DNA of 64,000 nucleotides from Escherichia phage Phi1. The notes under the pieces were generated by a model, which ran no database searches, was not told the origin of the DNA, and saw only the letters and a program-made list of their open reading frames with translations. Location: sequence record EF437941, one strand, 5' to 3'. Position 1 is the first letter of the stretch. The number at the start of each line of letters is the position of its first letter. The position numbers were made by a program, and so were the translations under genes. Shown here in pieces: positions 40,878-46,616 of the stretch.

Positions 40878-42098
40878 TTATACTGCCATTTGAGCGGTGA
40901 TCGCTGGATGGCTTTGATAGTTGTGAATTTTAAAGTCTTTCGGAGTCTTTGTCAATACCTCATCTAAAGATTTAAATTCCGGCAACTCAATTGTTGGTTT
41001 ATCAAACGGAACACGGCTTAACTGTTCCATAACTTGATCAAAATGGTTTTTGTAAATGTGAGTATCTCCACCAGAGAAAATCAGTTCTCCTACCTCAAGA
41101 TCACACATTTTCGCTATGATGTGAGTTAACAGCGCATAGCTGGCGACGTTAAAGGGCAAGCCCAAAAAGCTGTCTACGCTTCGCTGAAACCACATACAAG
41201 ACAGTTTACCCTCATTGACATAGAATTGCACGAACGGATGACATACACCTAATACAGCATTATGTGTTCCTTGTACGTTCCACGAGTCAATAATGATCCG
41301 GCGATCCGTTGGATTGTTTTTAATTTGTTCAATCACGTTTTGTAACTGGTCTTCCCAAATCTTCGGGCGATAGACATATTCTTCATCGTCTTTAGTGCTC
41401 GATGTGTCTACGTCCATACTAACAAAGATCGTGGTATCCGGTGCTAAAATGTCACCGCCCAGATAATCACTATCAAGCAGATAATCGAAATAACCACTAT
41501 CTACCCATTCCTGGAATCCCCACAAGCAATATGCATCATTAACAAAATTAGATTGAGTCTTCCAGTGGTCTGCTACCAGAATACAATCAAACTCTTCATA
41601 AATCATACCACGCCAGATAGCACATAAACGGTCTTCTGTGTCATTGGTTGGCGTAAAGTCTTCTACCCACGGGTGTTTAAATGTATGTGTATATTTGCTC
41701 TTAACGCGCTTAATTTTGATTTCACCGTGTGGATGAATCGGTTTGCGTCGCCATGACATACCATACATATTTCCGACATTATAACCATTGAATCGCAAAG
41801 GATTCTTTTCTTTCATATCAAGACAGTTGCCGCGCCAAATGTCGAAGGCTTCTTCGTCAAACTTACCGCGTGTAATTTCCTGTAAGCGACGGCGGTCGAG
41901 TGATCCCTCCATAAACCATAGCAACTCGCCAATTACAGAGGATGTAGCCATCTTTTTAGTGGTCAGTAAGGGGAAACCCTTGCTTAAATCAATTCGCATC
42001 TCTGCGCCGAATTTAGAGAGCGTACCTACCCCCGTTCGATCTTCACGAGGCCAGCCATTATCAAGAACATCACGCAATAGTTTCAAATATTCTTTCAT
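40878..42098 (-). CDS. td: thymidylate synthase with a ~130-aa in-frame insertion
   Basis: N- and C-terminal thirds align with T4 Td (RTGVGT, LLWFM, YGMSWRR ... NPTDRRIIIDSWNV, KLSCMWFQRSVDSFLGLPFNVASYALLTHIIAKMCDL, SGGDTHIY, HPAITAQMAV); residues ~119-248 have no counterpart in T4 Td or E. coli ThyA. Confidence 0.8.
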   Translation of the reverse strand: MKEYLKLLRDVLDNGWPREDRTGVGTLSKFGAEMRIDLSKGFPLLTTKKMATSSVIGELLWFMEGSLDRRRLQEITRGKFDEEAFDIWRGNCLDMKEKNPLRFNGYNVGNMYGMSWRRKPIHPHGEIKIKRVKSKYTHTFKHPWVEDFTPTNDTEDRLCAIWRGMIYEEFDCILVADHWKTQSNFVNDAYCLWGFQEWVDSGYFDYLLDSDYLGGDILAPDTTIFVSMDVDTSSTKDDEEYVYRPKIWEDQLQNVIEQIKNNPTDRRIIIDSWNVQGTHNAVLGVCHPFVQFYVNEGKLSCMWFQRSVDSFLGLPFNVASYALLTHIIAKMCDLEVGELIFSGGDTHIYKNHFDQVMEQLSRVPFDKPTIELPEFKSLDEVLTKTPKDFKIHNYQSHPAITAQMAV

Positions 42099-42432: not shown

Positions 42433-43014
42433 TTACGCCTTCTTACGTTCTAAAATTTGTTCGCTGATCAGGTAATTATCAAGGAAGTAATTATGTTCTT
42501 CTTTGGTTACAAAGTCAAAATATAATTCCTGAATCATTTCCTTAGAGATACCAACATCATATTCAAATGGATCGTTGATTCCTGAACGTTGAACATACGT
42601 TAACACAATACGGTCCGCAAAGTCAACCGCTTTTTCAATCAGGGAAGGTCCACCAATAACGCTTACCAAACCTTGCAATTTCTCTATGACTTCTAATAAT
42701 TCCTTCAATCCACCATCATTAGTAATCGCGGTATACACATCAGGTTGTTCGCCGTTTTTTGCTTTCGGTGCTGGCTTACTGGTATCGGTACTAACAACCA
42801 CATTCACACGACCTTCCAGTGCTTTAGGGAGACTTTCAAAGGTATTACGTCCCATTACTACCGCCGCAAGTTCAACATCTCCCATAGTGCGCATTTTAAA
42901 GTTTTCCATGTCCTTTTTGATTGGACGACCCCACGGTAAACCGCCTTTAAAACCAAAAGCCCAATTTTCATCTGACATTTTAGTGTCACCAATCGCAAAT
43001 ACACATTGAATCAT
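42433..43014 (-). CDS. frd: dihydrofolate reductase
   Basis: 193 aa, the same length as T4 Frd; DHFR-like IGDTK...GLPWG-type N-terminus; lies upstream of td as in T4. Confidence 0.8.
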   Translation of the reverse strand: MIQCVFAIGDTKMSDENWAFGFKGGLPWGRPIKKDMENFKMRTMGDVELAAVVMGRNTFESLPKALEGRVNVVVSTDTSKPAPKAKNGEQPDVYTAITNDGGLKELLEVIEKLQGLVSVIGGPSLIEKAVDFADRIVLTYVQRSGINDPFEYDVGISKEMIQELYFDFVTKEEHNYFLDNYLISEQILERKKA

Positions 43015-43029
43015 AATATAAATCTCCCA

Positions 43030-43359
43030 TCAAATCAGTTTGAAATAGTTTTCGTTTACATTTTCTTCTGTGATTGCTGTCTTAAATTCTTGACCGTTAT
43101 CCGGTGTGATGAAATAACGATCAGAATAATCACGAAAACGTTTTAAGTGAGATACCCCAACATTAACACCATTTTCCCAAAAACGAAAGGTAATCATTTT
43201 TGGTTCATATCGATAGTCGCTGGTTAACACAGTACCGTCACCGCGACGGGCTTCATAAACCGTAATACATTCACGATTAGCGGCTTTAAGGCATTCTTCA
43301 ATAGTGCCGCACGAGATAATACTTACCTTTTCATCTACGATTTGTTCTACAGTCCACAT
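43030..43359 (-). CDS. hypothetical protein (109 aa)
   Basis: ORF with GAGGA RBS; a -35 element lies upstream. Confidence 0.55.
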   Translation of the reverse strand: MWTVEQIVDEKVSIISCGTIEECLKAANRECITVYEARRGDGTVLTSDYRYEPKMITFRFWENGVNVGVSHLKRFRDYSDRYFITPDNGQEFKTAITEENVNENYFKLI

Positions 43360-43406
43360 AATATAGTCCTCACTTTGTTTCGATGTTTGTATTATACACT
43401 GTTGCG

Positions 43407-44789
43407 TTACGCTGTCAACTCTTTTTCAAAAGATTTTACGATATACATGATAGTGCTCAATTCAGACGGCGCTACTGTTTCTGTGTAGCCATCCGGCATA
43501 TCTTCTTTTGATATATAGGAAGTTTTATCTTTCATTGCTTCCTTGATCTTGTTCTCTAAGTCTAAGATCTTTTGACCGTCTTGTAAAGTCAATTCATAAA
43601 AGATCTCGTGATCGAACTTAGAAACACGAGATTGGTTTCTCATTCGTTCTTGTGTTGTTAAATTGGTTATTCCAAACTTAACTGCCGTTAACGATTTATG
43701 TTTGTTTAGTTTCTGTACATAAAATGTTCCAGGTTTTATAGGTTGATAGCCCATTTTAGAACATTTTCTGCATCTTGTTCCAGATTGTACAAATTTACTA
43801 TATGTTGGTGTATACTCATGACCCATTTCACATGTAATTTTTAATCTTGTTTCGACCCCAGAATAGCTACCTCCACAAAATCCGTGAAATTTATTATTAC
43901 CCAACACGGAAATTATATTTTTTATTGCATCGTCTTCGTTCCTGCGACCACTACATACTCCACATCTATATCCACCATGAAAAAAATCACTAAACGCAAT
44001 ATTGTACTCGTGTCCATTATTACACGTCATATTAAGTCTCGTCCTTATATTTTCGTATTTTCCACCAACAAATCCATTGAAAATATGGTCTCCTTTGACC
44101 GAATTAATTCTATCTAACGCGGTAGTTTCTGTTAAACGCTTGGTCCCGCAGCATTCTGGGCATCTAGTTCCTTGAATAAAATGACCATACGTTGGTTGAT
44201 ATATGTGTCCATTATTACACTCTATTATTAACTTTGTTTTATGTGCACCAATGTAAGCACCACCAACAAATCCATGAAATTTTTCATCGACCAGTGCGTT
44301 GATGATATTTTGTATAGCTTCATCATTCGATTTTTTGTGTTTATTATTGCAAATTGGACATGTATTGACACCACCAATTATGCTGGAATAACATCTATGG
44401 TATTCGTGACCGTGTTCTTTACATTTTAATATAATTTTAGATGTCGATACATTTTTAAACTCTTCTGTCGTGAAACCCATAAACTCGCTATCTGTTAATG
44501 AAGATTTGATATCATCAATAACTTGTTCGGTTGATTTCTTTGCATTGGGTGCGCATAAACCACACTTGGTTTTTCTTCCAACTAGTGTTTTAATAGTTTT
44601 TGTGTGTGTTGTGTGTCCTTTATCGCACATTATACATACCCTTGTATCACATCCTTTCCAATCATCAACAAACCCGAGAAATTTGTAATTTATAGAGTGA
44701 CAATATTCGCGTACTGTATTCTCGTGAATTGTCGGTTGTTTTTGTCTCTTACCAACGCAAATGTCCTTAGCAAAGTATGTTTTCATCAT
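43407..44789 (-). CDS. multi-zinc-ribbon repeat protein with C-terminal GIY-YIG/T5orf172-like domain (putative mobile endonuclease-like)
   Basis: Four tandem ~50-aa modules of pattern hGF.GG.Y...L...C..GHEY...Y..F..G.RC..C plus an N-terminal zinc ribbon; C-terminus GTFYVQKL...LTAVKFGITNLTTQERMRNQ. Start set at the ATG pair with GGAGGA RBS (44787-44789). Confidence 0.55.
   Translation of the reverse strand: MMKTYFAKDICVGKRQKQPTIHENTVREYCHSINYKFLGFVDDWKGCDTRVCIMCDKGHTTHTKTIKTLVGRKTKCGLCAPNAKKSTEQVIDDIKSSLTDSEFMGFTTEEFKNVSTSKIILKCKEHGHEYHRCYSSIIGGVNTCPICNNKHKKSNDEAIQNIINALVDEKFHGFVGGAYIGAHKTKLIIECNNGHIYQPTYGHFIQGTRCPECCGTKRLTETTALDRINSVKGDHIFNGFVGGKYENIRTRLNMTCNNGHEYNIAFSDFFHGGYRCGVCSGRRNEDDAIKNIISVLGNNKFHGFCGGSYSGVETRLKITCEMGHEYTPTYSKFVQSGTRCRKCSKMGYQPIKPGTFYVQKLNKHKSLTAVKFGITNLTTQERMRNQSRVSKFDHEIFYELTLQDGQKILDLENKIKEAMKDKTSYISKEDMPDGYTETVAPSELSTIMYIVKSFEKELTA
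43413..43418 (-). promoter_or_regulatory. early promoter -35 element (TTGACA) with conserved leader
   Basis: Plus tgtcaa; leader tttcgatgtttgtattata; no obvious stem-loop. Confidence 0.4.
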
Positions 44790-44839
44790 TTTTATCCTCC
44801 GTTGTTCGATGTGTGCATGATACATGACCACATAAGCAT

Positions 44840-44845
44840 GTCAAC
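44840..44845 (-). promoter_or_regulatory. early promoter -35 element (TTGACA)
   Basis: Plus tgtcaa with minus-strand A-tract upstream; the -10 is ambiguous. Confidence 0.35.
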
Positions 44846-44876
44846 ACCTTTTTCATAAATTTTTAGGCAATAAAAA

Positions 44877-44896
44877 AGCCTCCCCGAAGGGAGGCT
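44877..44896 (-). terminator. Rho-independent terminator after gene 32 (minus strand)
   Basis: Stem AGCCTCCC / GGGAGGCT with loop cgaa; minus-strand U-tract (plus A-run 44871-44876). Confidence 0.65.
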
Positions 44897-44906
44897 GTAA
44901 AATTCA

Positions 44907-45881
44907 TTACATCGCTAACAGAGAGTCCAGGTCATCCAGATCAGAAGCGGAGGAAGTACCGCCACCCAGATCCAGCGATGCCATCAGGTCATCAGCGGAA
45001 GAATCTAACGCCGTGCTAGCTGCGTTAATACCAACTACAGTGCTAGCTGCGGTAATACCAGCGTCGAATGCATTCATCTGTGCGTCAAAATCATCAAGCT
45101 GGCTGTTAATCGCTGCCGCAGCACTGGAAGCCGCAGCACCAGCTACCATAGACACACCCATAGTTTTCTTAAATTTGGTTTCCAGTTCATCGAACGGTTT
45201 AAACTGGCTAGGCGCTACAATCTCACTCAGATCAACCATGTTTTCCATCAGGTATTTCTGATATGCTTCGTCTTCAATCTTCGGAAGCTGTGATTGCTGC
45301 ATGACACGAGAATCATCATAGTTGTGGTGTATATCAACCTTCTTAGCTTTCAGGACGAAGTTAGCGCCAGAGAACACACAAGTTACATCTACCGGAACTT
45401 GGCCCATATCGGTATTCACGTTCACCATTGCAACGATCTTATCATAAATTTTCTGACCGAAGCGGAATTTGAATACCTTACCTTCATTTTCTGGTGCTTG
45501 AGGATCTTTCAGTACCAGAATATTTGCGTAGTAGGACGCTTTACGCTTAATCAGTTGCCATTCGGTTTTATCGGTATTGTATAGGTCTTTTTCGTTAATA
45601 TATTTGCACACAGGGCAAGAATCAAAATCACCGTGGGTGCTTGAGCAGTTTTCCCAATACCATTTGCCATTAACTTTGAAGGAATGGTTTACCAGTTTCA
45701 CAATCGGCAGACCGTCTTCTGTCTTAGACGGCAGGAAGCGAATCAGGGCTTCACCGTTACCTGCTGCATCAGTCTTAATCTTCCACTCTTTCGGATCTTC
45801 TTTGGAGAAACCGTTGCCACCTTTCAGTGCGGCCAGTTGAGCTTGCAGTTTGGAGCTATCTTGACGTTTAAACATATTCAC
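44907..45881 (-). CDS. 32: single-stranded DNA-binding protein gp32
   Basis: [51 protein letters not shown]...[16 protein letters not shown]...[30 protein letters not shown] matches T4 gp32; the start may be the second ATG at 45875. Confidence 0.9.
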
Positions 45882-45935
45882 TATTCCTTCTTTTGATTAA
45901 TTTACTAGACTATTATACAGATTTAAATTTACTTG

Positions 45936-46616
45936 TCAACTATTTGTTTCGGCTTTTAATTGAGATATTTCTTTACACTCTTTAACTACTTTAACAAATA
46001 ATGCTCTTGCTTTTGCGGCGTCAATAACAAGTAGTTTCTTGTACGCCTTCATTTTAACACTATAAGTTTGCCAAATCAAGTCTTTGGCTACCTTGTCGTG
46101 TTCGTCGATTATATTTAGAAAGCTATCTAACAACATAAACGACTCAAACGATATAATCCGATTTTGCAGTAGTTTAAATATACCGCTAGTTTCGGTTGCG
46201 GGATTGTATGTAATTAGCTCTTTAAGAGTAACCCCGCGTTTCTCGGAGAAGTATACCAGACTTTTAATGTCATCGTCAAATCTTGTTGCTGCATCGGTTA
46301 TCTTTCCTATGTATTCCATATAAAAGCCGTATGCGTCAACATCAGTGATTTCACCTACCCATGCATCGGTATTAGCTACCAGATTGCTTAGGAATAGGAA
46401 GTATAATTCTCTTAGATTGTACTTTTCCGCTAATTTTGCGAAATAATACTTATCTCTGCGTTTATTGAATGCGGCATCAGACAACCGCATCCTCCAATTG
46501 TATTTTACGCAATCATAACGCCCGTTCATGTGAGCTTTCATCATGCAATATAACATATACACAGATTTAGCATTAATTCGCATATCTGGATCTGGAGGAA
46601 GACGGTTTCTGATCAT
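45936..46616 (-). CDS. 59: helicase loader gp59
   Basis: GRYDCVKYNWRMRLSDAAFNKRRDKYYFAKL...NLVANTDAWVGEI...LLQNRIISFESFMLLDSFLNIIDEHDK matches T4 gp59. Confidence 0.9.
   Translation of the reverse strand: MIRNRLPPDPDMRINAKSVYMLYCMMKAHMNGRYDCVKYNWRMRLSDAAFNKRRDKYYFAKLAEKYNLRELYFLFLSNLVANTDAWVGEITDVDAYGFYMEYIGKITDAATRFDDDIKSLVYFSEKRGVTLKELITYNPATETSGIFKLLQNRIISFESFMLLDSFLNIIDEHDKVAKDLIWQTYSVKMKAYKKLLVIDAAKARALFVKVVKECKEISQLKAETNS

Follow-up and report, generated by a model that had tools for sequence, protein, structure and literature searches.

A putative T5orf172-type GIY-YIG endonuclease gene with five CapR-type zinc modules at a variable slot beside gene 32 of Krischvirus phages

Why should one position beside gene 32 hold a gene in one phage, an unrelated gene in a close relative and nothing at all in a third? 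The question is raised by a 460-aa open reading frame (ORF) in a 64,000-nucleotide stretch of DNA from Escherichia phage Phi1 (sequence record EF437941), referred to here as the window. The window is part of the genome of a Krischvirus (RB49-like, T4-type coliphage), and the 3.6 kb surrounding the ORF are 92-97% identical to dozens of Krischvirus genomes. The coding sequence (CDS) is as follows, with positions counted from the first letter of the window.

43407-44789, minus strand: complete CDS of 460 aa, five CapR/DUF4379-type zinc modules followed by a predicted T5orf172-type GIY-YIG nuclease domain (ORF list, translation, Pfam, PHROG).

The ORF is predicted to encode a GIY-YIG nuclease of the T5orf172 type, with five CapR-type zinc modules as its guide, and comparison among related phages suggests a cassette beside gene 32 that is mobile and can be replaced. 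From these features we infer that the gene is free-standing, of the homing-endonuclease type and of the T5orf172 lineage, here carried by a Krischvirus; we regard this assignment as probable, and homing-type spread would most likely be the mechanism. An original prediction, made from the sequence before any database was searched, had read the ORF as a modular zinc-ribbon array fused to a nuclease-like domain, that is, a free-standing mobile endonuclease or a regulator derived from one.

Predicted architecture of the protein

Aligned with itself at an offset of about one module, the N-terminal 343 aa of the protein showed 35% identity over 249 aa (E = 8e-36). The Pfam family CapR (PF21817) matched in five stretches with E = 1.5e-15 and a score of 57.6 bits, the gathering score being 24.2; together with the self-alignment, this confirmed the internal repeat. 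DUF4379 (PF14311), a treble-clef zinc finger, matched at 9.6e-09 (35.8 bits against a cut-off of 24.5). A hidden Markov model (HMM) made from the modules recovered five copies, listed here with the predicted zinc ligands (module HMM and module alignment).

44553-44735, minus strand: zinc module 1, aa 19-79, the most diverged; ligands C55, H59, C76, C79.
44349-44543, minus strand: zinc module 2, aa 83-147; ligands C123, H126/H128, C144, C147.
44151-44339, minus strand: zinc module 3, aa 151-213; ligands C191, H195, C210, C213.
43953-44141, minus strand: zinc module 4, aa 217-279; ligands C256, H260, C276, C279.
43761-43949, minus strand: zinc module 5, aa 281-343; ligands C320, H324, C340, C343.

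The repeat period of 64-68 aa corresponds to a helix plus the ~46-aa core written out in the original prediction. Each module contains an N-terminal helix and a beta-hairpin (FxGF...TKL), followed by C-x3/4-H and C-x2-C, and the full predicted ligand set is present in 5/5 modules. The AlphaFold2 (AF2) model of module 5 (pLDDT 84.8) consists of a helix, a beta-hairpin, a zinc knuckle and short helices. Pairwise identity between the modules is 19-51%, with module 1 at 19-33% to the others. Thus, the repeat is real, as was proposed, but the count of four modules behind an N-terminal CxxC...CxxC ribbon is not: since the module HMM finds five copies, the ribbon is the first and most diverged of them. 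Across 70 diverse modules, three Cys are invariant and a His or Cys lies 2-4 residues past the first Cys. Tandem Repeats Finder detected no repeat at the DNA level, and the modules repeat at the protein level only; their duplication is therefore old. We also considered whether the modules in the window are shuffled copies from other alleles. This was ruled out, as the best match outside the window's own type is at most 57% identical.

The definition of the zinc module comes from CapR, in which Cys-to-Ser substitutions abolish DNA binding (Netter et al. 2021, PMC8096241). Taken together with the CapR/DUF4379 homology and the conserved ligands, this argues for a modular, zinc-binding and DNA-binding array as originally predicted. 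The array is, by homology, a "beads on a string" arrangement of five CapR/DUF4379 zinc modules.

The remainder of the protein contains a second predicted unit.

43410-43739, minus strand: predicted GIY-YIG-fold domain of the T5orf172/MUG113 branch, aa ~351-460 (invariant residues, family matches of relatives).

Residues Y357, K371, G373, R382, E412, G434, T436 and E437 are invariant both in 25 aligned relatives and in 117 representatives from an exhaustive profile search, mutually ≤50% identical. The core fold, predicted with confidence, is GIY-YIG-like: a hairpin of strands 1 and 2, helix 1, strand 3, helix 2 and helix 3. Y357 (in G-T-F-Y-V) is the "GIY" Tyr of strand 1, R382 lies in predicted helix 1 and E412 in predicted helix 2. 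The C-terminal motif quoted in the original prediction is present and spans strands 1 and 2 and helix 1 of this fold. The predicted catalytic Arg and Glu have thus been retained, as have the ligand sets of the modules. Family membership is carried by the relatives: 16 of the 25 aligned sequences match MUG113 (best 2.6e-7) and 12 match T5orf172 (best 1.2e-7), and among the 117 representatives MUG113 is found in 26 and T5orf172 in 14 (E ≤ 1e-3). CapR is found in 82 of the same representatives, DUF4379 in 42 and DUF723 in 27. Structural matches in BFVD (TM 0.72-0.98) are phage proteins named GIY-YIG, T5 Orf172, homing endonuclease or CapR-homology. The full protein matches PHROG 681, "endonuclease", at 1.8e-116, and relatives already carry the label "endonuclease" in that family and in the RefSeq record of RB49. 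When PDB sequences were searched with a profile of the nuclease domain, the matches were all to designed helical repeat proteins (E = 1e-4 and weaker), which we judged to be spurious low-complexity matches. We conclude from the family matches of the relatives and the invariant residues that the predicted C-terminal domain belongs to the GIY-YIG superfamily, in the T5orf172/MUG113 branch.

Variation of the slot beside gene 32

On the coding strand, the gene order is gene 32 (44907-45881), the 460-aa ORF, a 109-aa ORF (43030-43359), frd (42433-43014) and td. The coordinates and the position between frd and gene 32 given originally are correct, with the single 109-aa ORF separating the 460-aa gene from frd. 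The gene is intact and has no paralogue elsewhere within the 64-kb window.

The slot between gene 32 and the 109-aa ORF next to frd is variable among Krischviruses: it is empty, holds another cassette or holds one of several array types. It is empty in PHB13. In MIZ2 and E26 it holds an unrelated 109-aa ORF; we considered this ORF as a remnant of the nuclease domain and ruled that out, the two being unrelated. MIZ4 carries a 182-aa form with one module, and the alleles of other isolates are 338-542 aa long. Among four alleles, those of the window and RB49 have 5 modules each, that of Skers 4 and that of JEP8 6. Phages of the same species differ in slot state, as seen in RB49 versus kaaroe versus PHB13, and in GEC-3S versus JEP8 versus Makalu versus E26. 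We found nine array types among 14 isolates, all adjoining gene 32. Array identity is 21-37% between full-length types from isolates and ≥97% within a type; over the last 70 aa, by contrast, all types but the MIZ4 form share 91-100% identity. The number of array types on the same tail rises to at least 28 once metagenomic proteins are added, and the two metagenomic alleles that were checked both lie in the same slot. The conserved tail occurs in one copy per Krischvirus genome, always in the gene 32-frd slot. Comparison of gene content at the locus thus revealed both presence/absence and allele replacement in related phages, a pattern consistent with the free-standing mobile endonuclease of the original prediction.

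The MIZ4 allele (L006, 2508-3434) has a diverged nuclease domain, with the last 70 aa ~50% identical, and ~380 nt without an annotated gene lie between it and gene 32. It may be a degraded allele or one of a different lineage. A 266-aa family member with the Krischvirus-specific tail (P0034) is labeled Bacillus atrophaeus at NCBI and lies on a 4.4-kb contig; it most likely derives from phage contamination and not from Bacillus itself.

Further small cassettes are optional in the slot, namely a 109-aa "MFLNATL..." ORF, which occurs alone or with the nuclease gene, and a 107-aa ORF. The small cassettes seen in other Krischviruses are at these positions of the compared loci.

L002, 2504-2833: small slot cassette.
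L007, 2515-2844: small slot cassette.
L012, 2859-3188: small slot cassette.
L019, 4427-4750: small slot cassette.

In Skers (L004, 4829-5425), MIZ4 (L006, 4470-5066) and E26 (L007, 3985-4578; annotated there as "Fis family transcriptional regulator"), genes 32 and 59 are separated by an HNH endonuclease gene. This gene is absent from the gene 32-gene 59 position of the window (45881-45947). With the slot of the 460-aa gene on one side and the HNH slot on the other, nuclease-gene slots therefore flank gene 32 on both sides in the genus.

Break points within the nuclease domain

To one side, homology between the window and other alleles ends at the start codon (44780-44792); to the other, it restarts in the nuclease domain (43725-43763), as located by blastn. 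Identity is near-random before aa ~370, reaches 70-90% over aa 371-390 and is 93-100% from aa 391 onward. This gradient delimits the following segment.

43407-43620, minus strand: shared 3' segment, aa ~391-460, with 93-100% nucleotide identity to otherwise unrelated Krischvirus alleles; left recombination boundary (blastn break points, binned identity, synonymous divergence).

With P0002, the closest distinct allele (84% aa identity), as reference, the array shows a synonymous divergence (dS) of 0.69 and a ratio of nonsynonymous to synonymous divergence (dN/dS) of 0.125, while dS over the last 70 codons is 0.08. The dN/dS value indicates purifying selection and a functional protein. The high dS of a selected array next to the low dS of the tail thus points to an old array grafted onto a recently shared backbone, and the segment of aa ~391-460 behaves like part of the backbone. 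FL38 carries the same allele as the window: its array is 99.3% identical at the nucleotide level and its adjoining 109-aa ORF only ~66%. By this comparison the region is a mosaic, with a boundary close to where the gene ends on its 3' side. The 109-aa ORF (minus strand) has no Pfam match and differs from that of FL38 by 67 mismatches in 43100-43299; it has the look of a further unit of allelic or mosaic nature.

Could the diversity of arrays on one tail benefit the phage rather than the gene? One explanation, which we consider unlikely, is a "weapon" nuclease, in which swappable arrays would aim a constant catalytic module at competing Krischviruses, satellites or host elements, and many alleles would be maintained by an arms race or by frequency-dependent selection. 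The parallel is Odn (Gp88) of phage ICP1, an origin-directed T5orf172 nuclease with Glu-dependent DNA cleavage (Barth et al. 2021, PMC8263062), which acts against PLE. Such a role would fit the presence of at least 28 array types that share a conserved tail and a single slot, as well as the purifying selection on each array lineage, and T5orf172 domains are known to be re-targeted by swaps of DNA-binding domains (Barth et al. 2023, PMC10055350; Odn, PMC8263062). However, repeated replacement by selfish alleles could equally yield the diversity of arrays, and the many Krischviruses without the gene, such as PHB13 with its empty slot, imply that it is dispensable. The target of such a weapon is itself conjectural, and since NCBIfam and PADLOC searches of the 460-aa protein both gave no match, there is no tie to a catalogued defence system. 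These points leave us with the homing-endonuclease-type gene as the preferred explanation.

Promoter copies on both flanks

The start and end of the gene are embedded in expression signals, which were located as follows.

44877-44896, minus strand: gene 32 terminator hairpin, GC-rich, AGCCTCCC-TTCG-GGGAGGCT plus a T run (terminator scan, sequence).
44817-44844, minus strand: sigma-70-type early promoter of the 460-aa gene, TTGACA-16 nt-TATCAT, with TG directly before the -10 box (promoter scan 11/12, sequence).
44796-44800, minus strand: Shine-Dalgarno sequence GGAGG, 6 nt 5' of the ATG (sequence).
43391-43418, minus strand: second, diverged early promoter, TTGACA-16 nt-TATAAT, for the 109-aa ORF (promoter scan 12/12, sequence, PHB13 three-way alignment).

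The ORF starts with ATG at 44789-44787 and stops at 43409-43407. A GTG start of a longer ORF, reaching 44831, was discarded; it lies 5' of the predicted -10 box and lacks a Shine-Dalgarno sequence, which makes its use unlikely. The record of GEC-3S annotates a promoter at the position homologous to 44817-44844, as well as the same -35 and -10 boxes of the second promoter. The -35 box of this second promoter falls inside the final codons of the CDS (GAG TTG ACA GCG, encoding E-L-T-A), and this overlap is probably one reason why the last residues of the protein are conserved.

Behind the gene 32 stop codon follow, in order, the GC-rich hairpin with its T run, an AT-rich tract and the early promoter. 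This arrangement corresponds to a PeSL-type cassette, as reported for RB49 and phi1 (PMC2839356), and the predicted upstream copy is complete (44817-44896). The downstream copy (43391-43430) has the AT-rich tract and the promoter without the stem-loop. The two promoter/leader copies are ~65% identical over ~80 bp. In a three-way alignment, the empty site of PHB13 aligns as a hybrid of the two copies that bracket the 460-aa gene; recombination between the copies would therefore delete the cassette precisely, or insert it via a circle.

This raises the possibility that the nuclease is uninvolved and that the gene is accessory cargo of a hyperplastic slot, spread only by PeSL/promoter-repeat recombination through the mini-circle route (Arbiol et al. 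2010). Mini-circles have been shown in RB49 and phi1 (PMC2839356), two early promoter/leader copies bracket the ORF, the empty PHB13 site is the exact hybrid expected from recombination between them, and unrelated, nuclease-free cassettes occupy the same slot in other phages. Nevertheless, the downstream copy lacks the stem-loop, the protein class has repeatedly been tied to homing next to essential genes, and allele replacement breaks inside the nuclease domain, not at the downstream promoter copy. We therefore consider it highly improbable that this route acts alone.

Farther downstream, td (40878-42098, minus strand) encodes a thymidylate synthase of 406 aa, with Pfam ThyA matches in two stretches. 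At ThyA profile position ~110 the protein has an insertion of about 125 residues (roughly aa 125-250), and the Krischvirus td genes that we saw all encode 406-411 aa.

Discussion

If the gene is of the homing-endonuclease type, as we favor, it would be expressed early from its own sigma-70-type promoter just past the gene 32 terminator. The five modules would jointly read a long asymmetric DNA site, each contributing a few base pairs, and the tethered GIY-YIG domain would nick or cut nearby, in the manner of I-TevI and Odn. In a mixed infection with a Krischvirus without this allele, cleavage would occur near the gene 32-frd region, and T4-type recombination would repair the break from the allele-bearing template, thereby copying the gene and flanking markers into the recipient. 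The end-points of recombination can be seen in the sequence: at the 5' end, the start codon with the shared promoter/leader, and at the 3' end, the second half of the nuclease domain, so that this half is homogenized with the backbone. What varies is the array plus the first half of the nuclease domain, moving as one unit. Such mosaic break points are indirect evidence for homing. The flanking promoter/leader copies may also permit loss and gain of the cassette by PeSL-type recombination without cleavage.

Several observations weigh against this model. Neither the full protein nor the isolated domain matches Pfam T5orf172 (PF10544), MUG113 (PF13455) or GIY-YIG at E ≤ 1. The YIG position of strand 2 reads K371-F-G373, in which the Gly is retained and the Tyr is replaced by an invariant Lys; a KIG/KFG form of the motif is also found in the T5orf172-positive relative P0050. 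The position four residues past the catalytic Arg is Q386 and not His/Tyr, with Gln in at least 90% of relatives; Odn likewise has no helix-1 His/Tyr yet is active (PMC8263062). For every allele at the locus, nuclease activity, target and homing are deduced from sequence. A homing enzyme for a fixed empty site is not expected to diversify into dozens of arrays, and the flanking promoter repeats are a route of gain and loss that is independent of the nuclease.

The substitution of both the canonical second Tyr and the helix-1 His/Tyr would also suit a domesticated DNA-binding regulator, a CapR-like or I-TevI-like repressor of early transcription around gene 32 and frd, in which the GIY-YIG domain is dead or serves only for DNA contact. 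CapR is a repressor from this lineage, I-TevI also acts as an autorepressor, and the 3' end of the gene overlaps the following promoter. A dead domain would not, however, need Tyr357, Arg382 and Glu412, which are invariant in more than 100 diverse relatives, and this invariance of the catalytic residues makes a pure regulator less likely. Furthermore, the T5orf172 domain is wholly absent from CapR-type repressors, and the gene is missing from close relatives, while regulators of essential genes are rarely dispensable. We regard this explanation as very unlikely, and return to the selfish nuclease gene as the reading that best accommodates the data.

The diversity of alleles exceeds the needs of simple homing, which may leave room for an inter-phage or anti-satellite weapon comparable to Odn. 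In a broader form of this idea, which we put forward as doubtful, the gene 32-frd slot would be a dedicated specificity-swapping locus. The constant catalytic half-domain (aa ~391-460), itself backbone sequence, would serve as a recombination landing pad for dozens of unrelated arrays, each with its first half-domain. The population would then possess a range of nucleases, preserved by conflict between phages or between phage and satellite and not by simple selfish homing.

How does the gene relate to known systems? T5orf172 homing endonuclease genes (HEGs) with repeated CapR/DUF723/DUF4379 fingers, domain swapping and essential-gene neighbors have been described in ICP1 and other phages (Barth et al. 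2023, PMC10448857/PMC10055350). As in those HEGs, CapR-type finger repeats are N-terminal and the T5orf172/MUG113 domain is C-terminal; the genes are free-standing, lie beside an essential gene, vary among close relatives and have DNA-binding regions swapped onto homologous nuclease domains. The present gene differs in its T4-type Krischvirus host (neither "RB49" nor "Krischvirus" appears in PMC10055350), in a nuclease domain too diverged for a direct Pfam match, in a swap point in the middle of that domain and in the at least 28 array types at a single slot. All five modules are homologous to the DNA-binding domain, with paired zinc knuckles, of CapR (PF21817) from the Vibrio cholerae satellite PLE. 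CapR, however, is a free-standing repressor that contains a single domain of this kind and lacks a nuclease; its motif is CxxC...CxC, compared to C-x3/4-H...CxxC in the window. Odn, the only T5orf172 protein with demonstrated Glu-dependent cleavage in the literature that we found, shares the catalytic Arg and Glu, the missing helix-1 His/Tyr and the modular fusion to a sequence-specific DNA-binding domain. It differs in having a RepA_N domain and no zinc fingers, and is a domesticated anti-satellite enzyme.

Within the T4-type phages, the closest comparison is to I-TevI and SegA-G of T4, in which segG adjoins gene 32 (Edgell et al. 2010, cited in PMC8096241). Common to these enzymes and the protein described here are a GIY-YIG fold joined to a modular region for DNA binding, expression at early times and a location next to gene 32, and the spread expected of them is double-strand-break repair with co-conversion of flanking markers. 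Their domain order is reversed, with the nuclease N-terminal in I-TevI and the Seg proteins; they have the classical GIY...YIG and His/Tyr, and their DNA-binding regions consist of helix-turn-helix and minor-groove elements and not of a zinc-finger array. The PeSL cassettes of RB49 and phi1 resemble the flanks of the gene in the upstream G/C-rich stem-loop terminator, AT-rich tract and consensus early promoter, in the related promoter copy on the other flank and in an empty site that is a recombinant of both. They differ in that the downstream copy here lacks a stem-loop and overlaps the CDS, and in that PeSL cassettes were described mainly for ORFans and not for nuclease genes (PMC2839356). 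The homing endonucleases of phi1 and RB49 listed in that paper are segC and ORF040 only.

Selfish homing nuclease genes of this class have been described before, and the architecture is published (Netter et al. 2021; Barth et al. 2023), so that the novelty of the gene is lower than the original prediction assumed. New for Krischviruses, relative to the literature that we found, are the swap point within the domain, the promoter in the last codons and the very large allele series at a single locus.

For annotation, the near-identical copy in FL38, currently a "hypothetical protein", can be renamed as a GIY-YIG endonuclease of the T5orf172 type with five zinc fingers of the CapR type. The T4-type Krischviruses join the lineages that carry this recently recognized class of HEGs beside an essential replication gene. 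With an easily handled host, phages whose site is empty and a large number of natural alleles on the same backbone, they offer a convenient E. coli system for studying target sites, the recognition rule of each module and homing. The allele series, with the same catalytic tail on at least 28 arrays, is a natural experiment in the re-targeting of a nuclease by exchange of its DNA-binding domain. If the slot were indeed a specificity-swapping locus, the module array would be readable as a natural, programmable DNA-recognition code.

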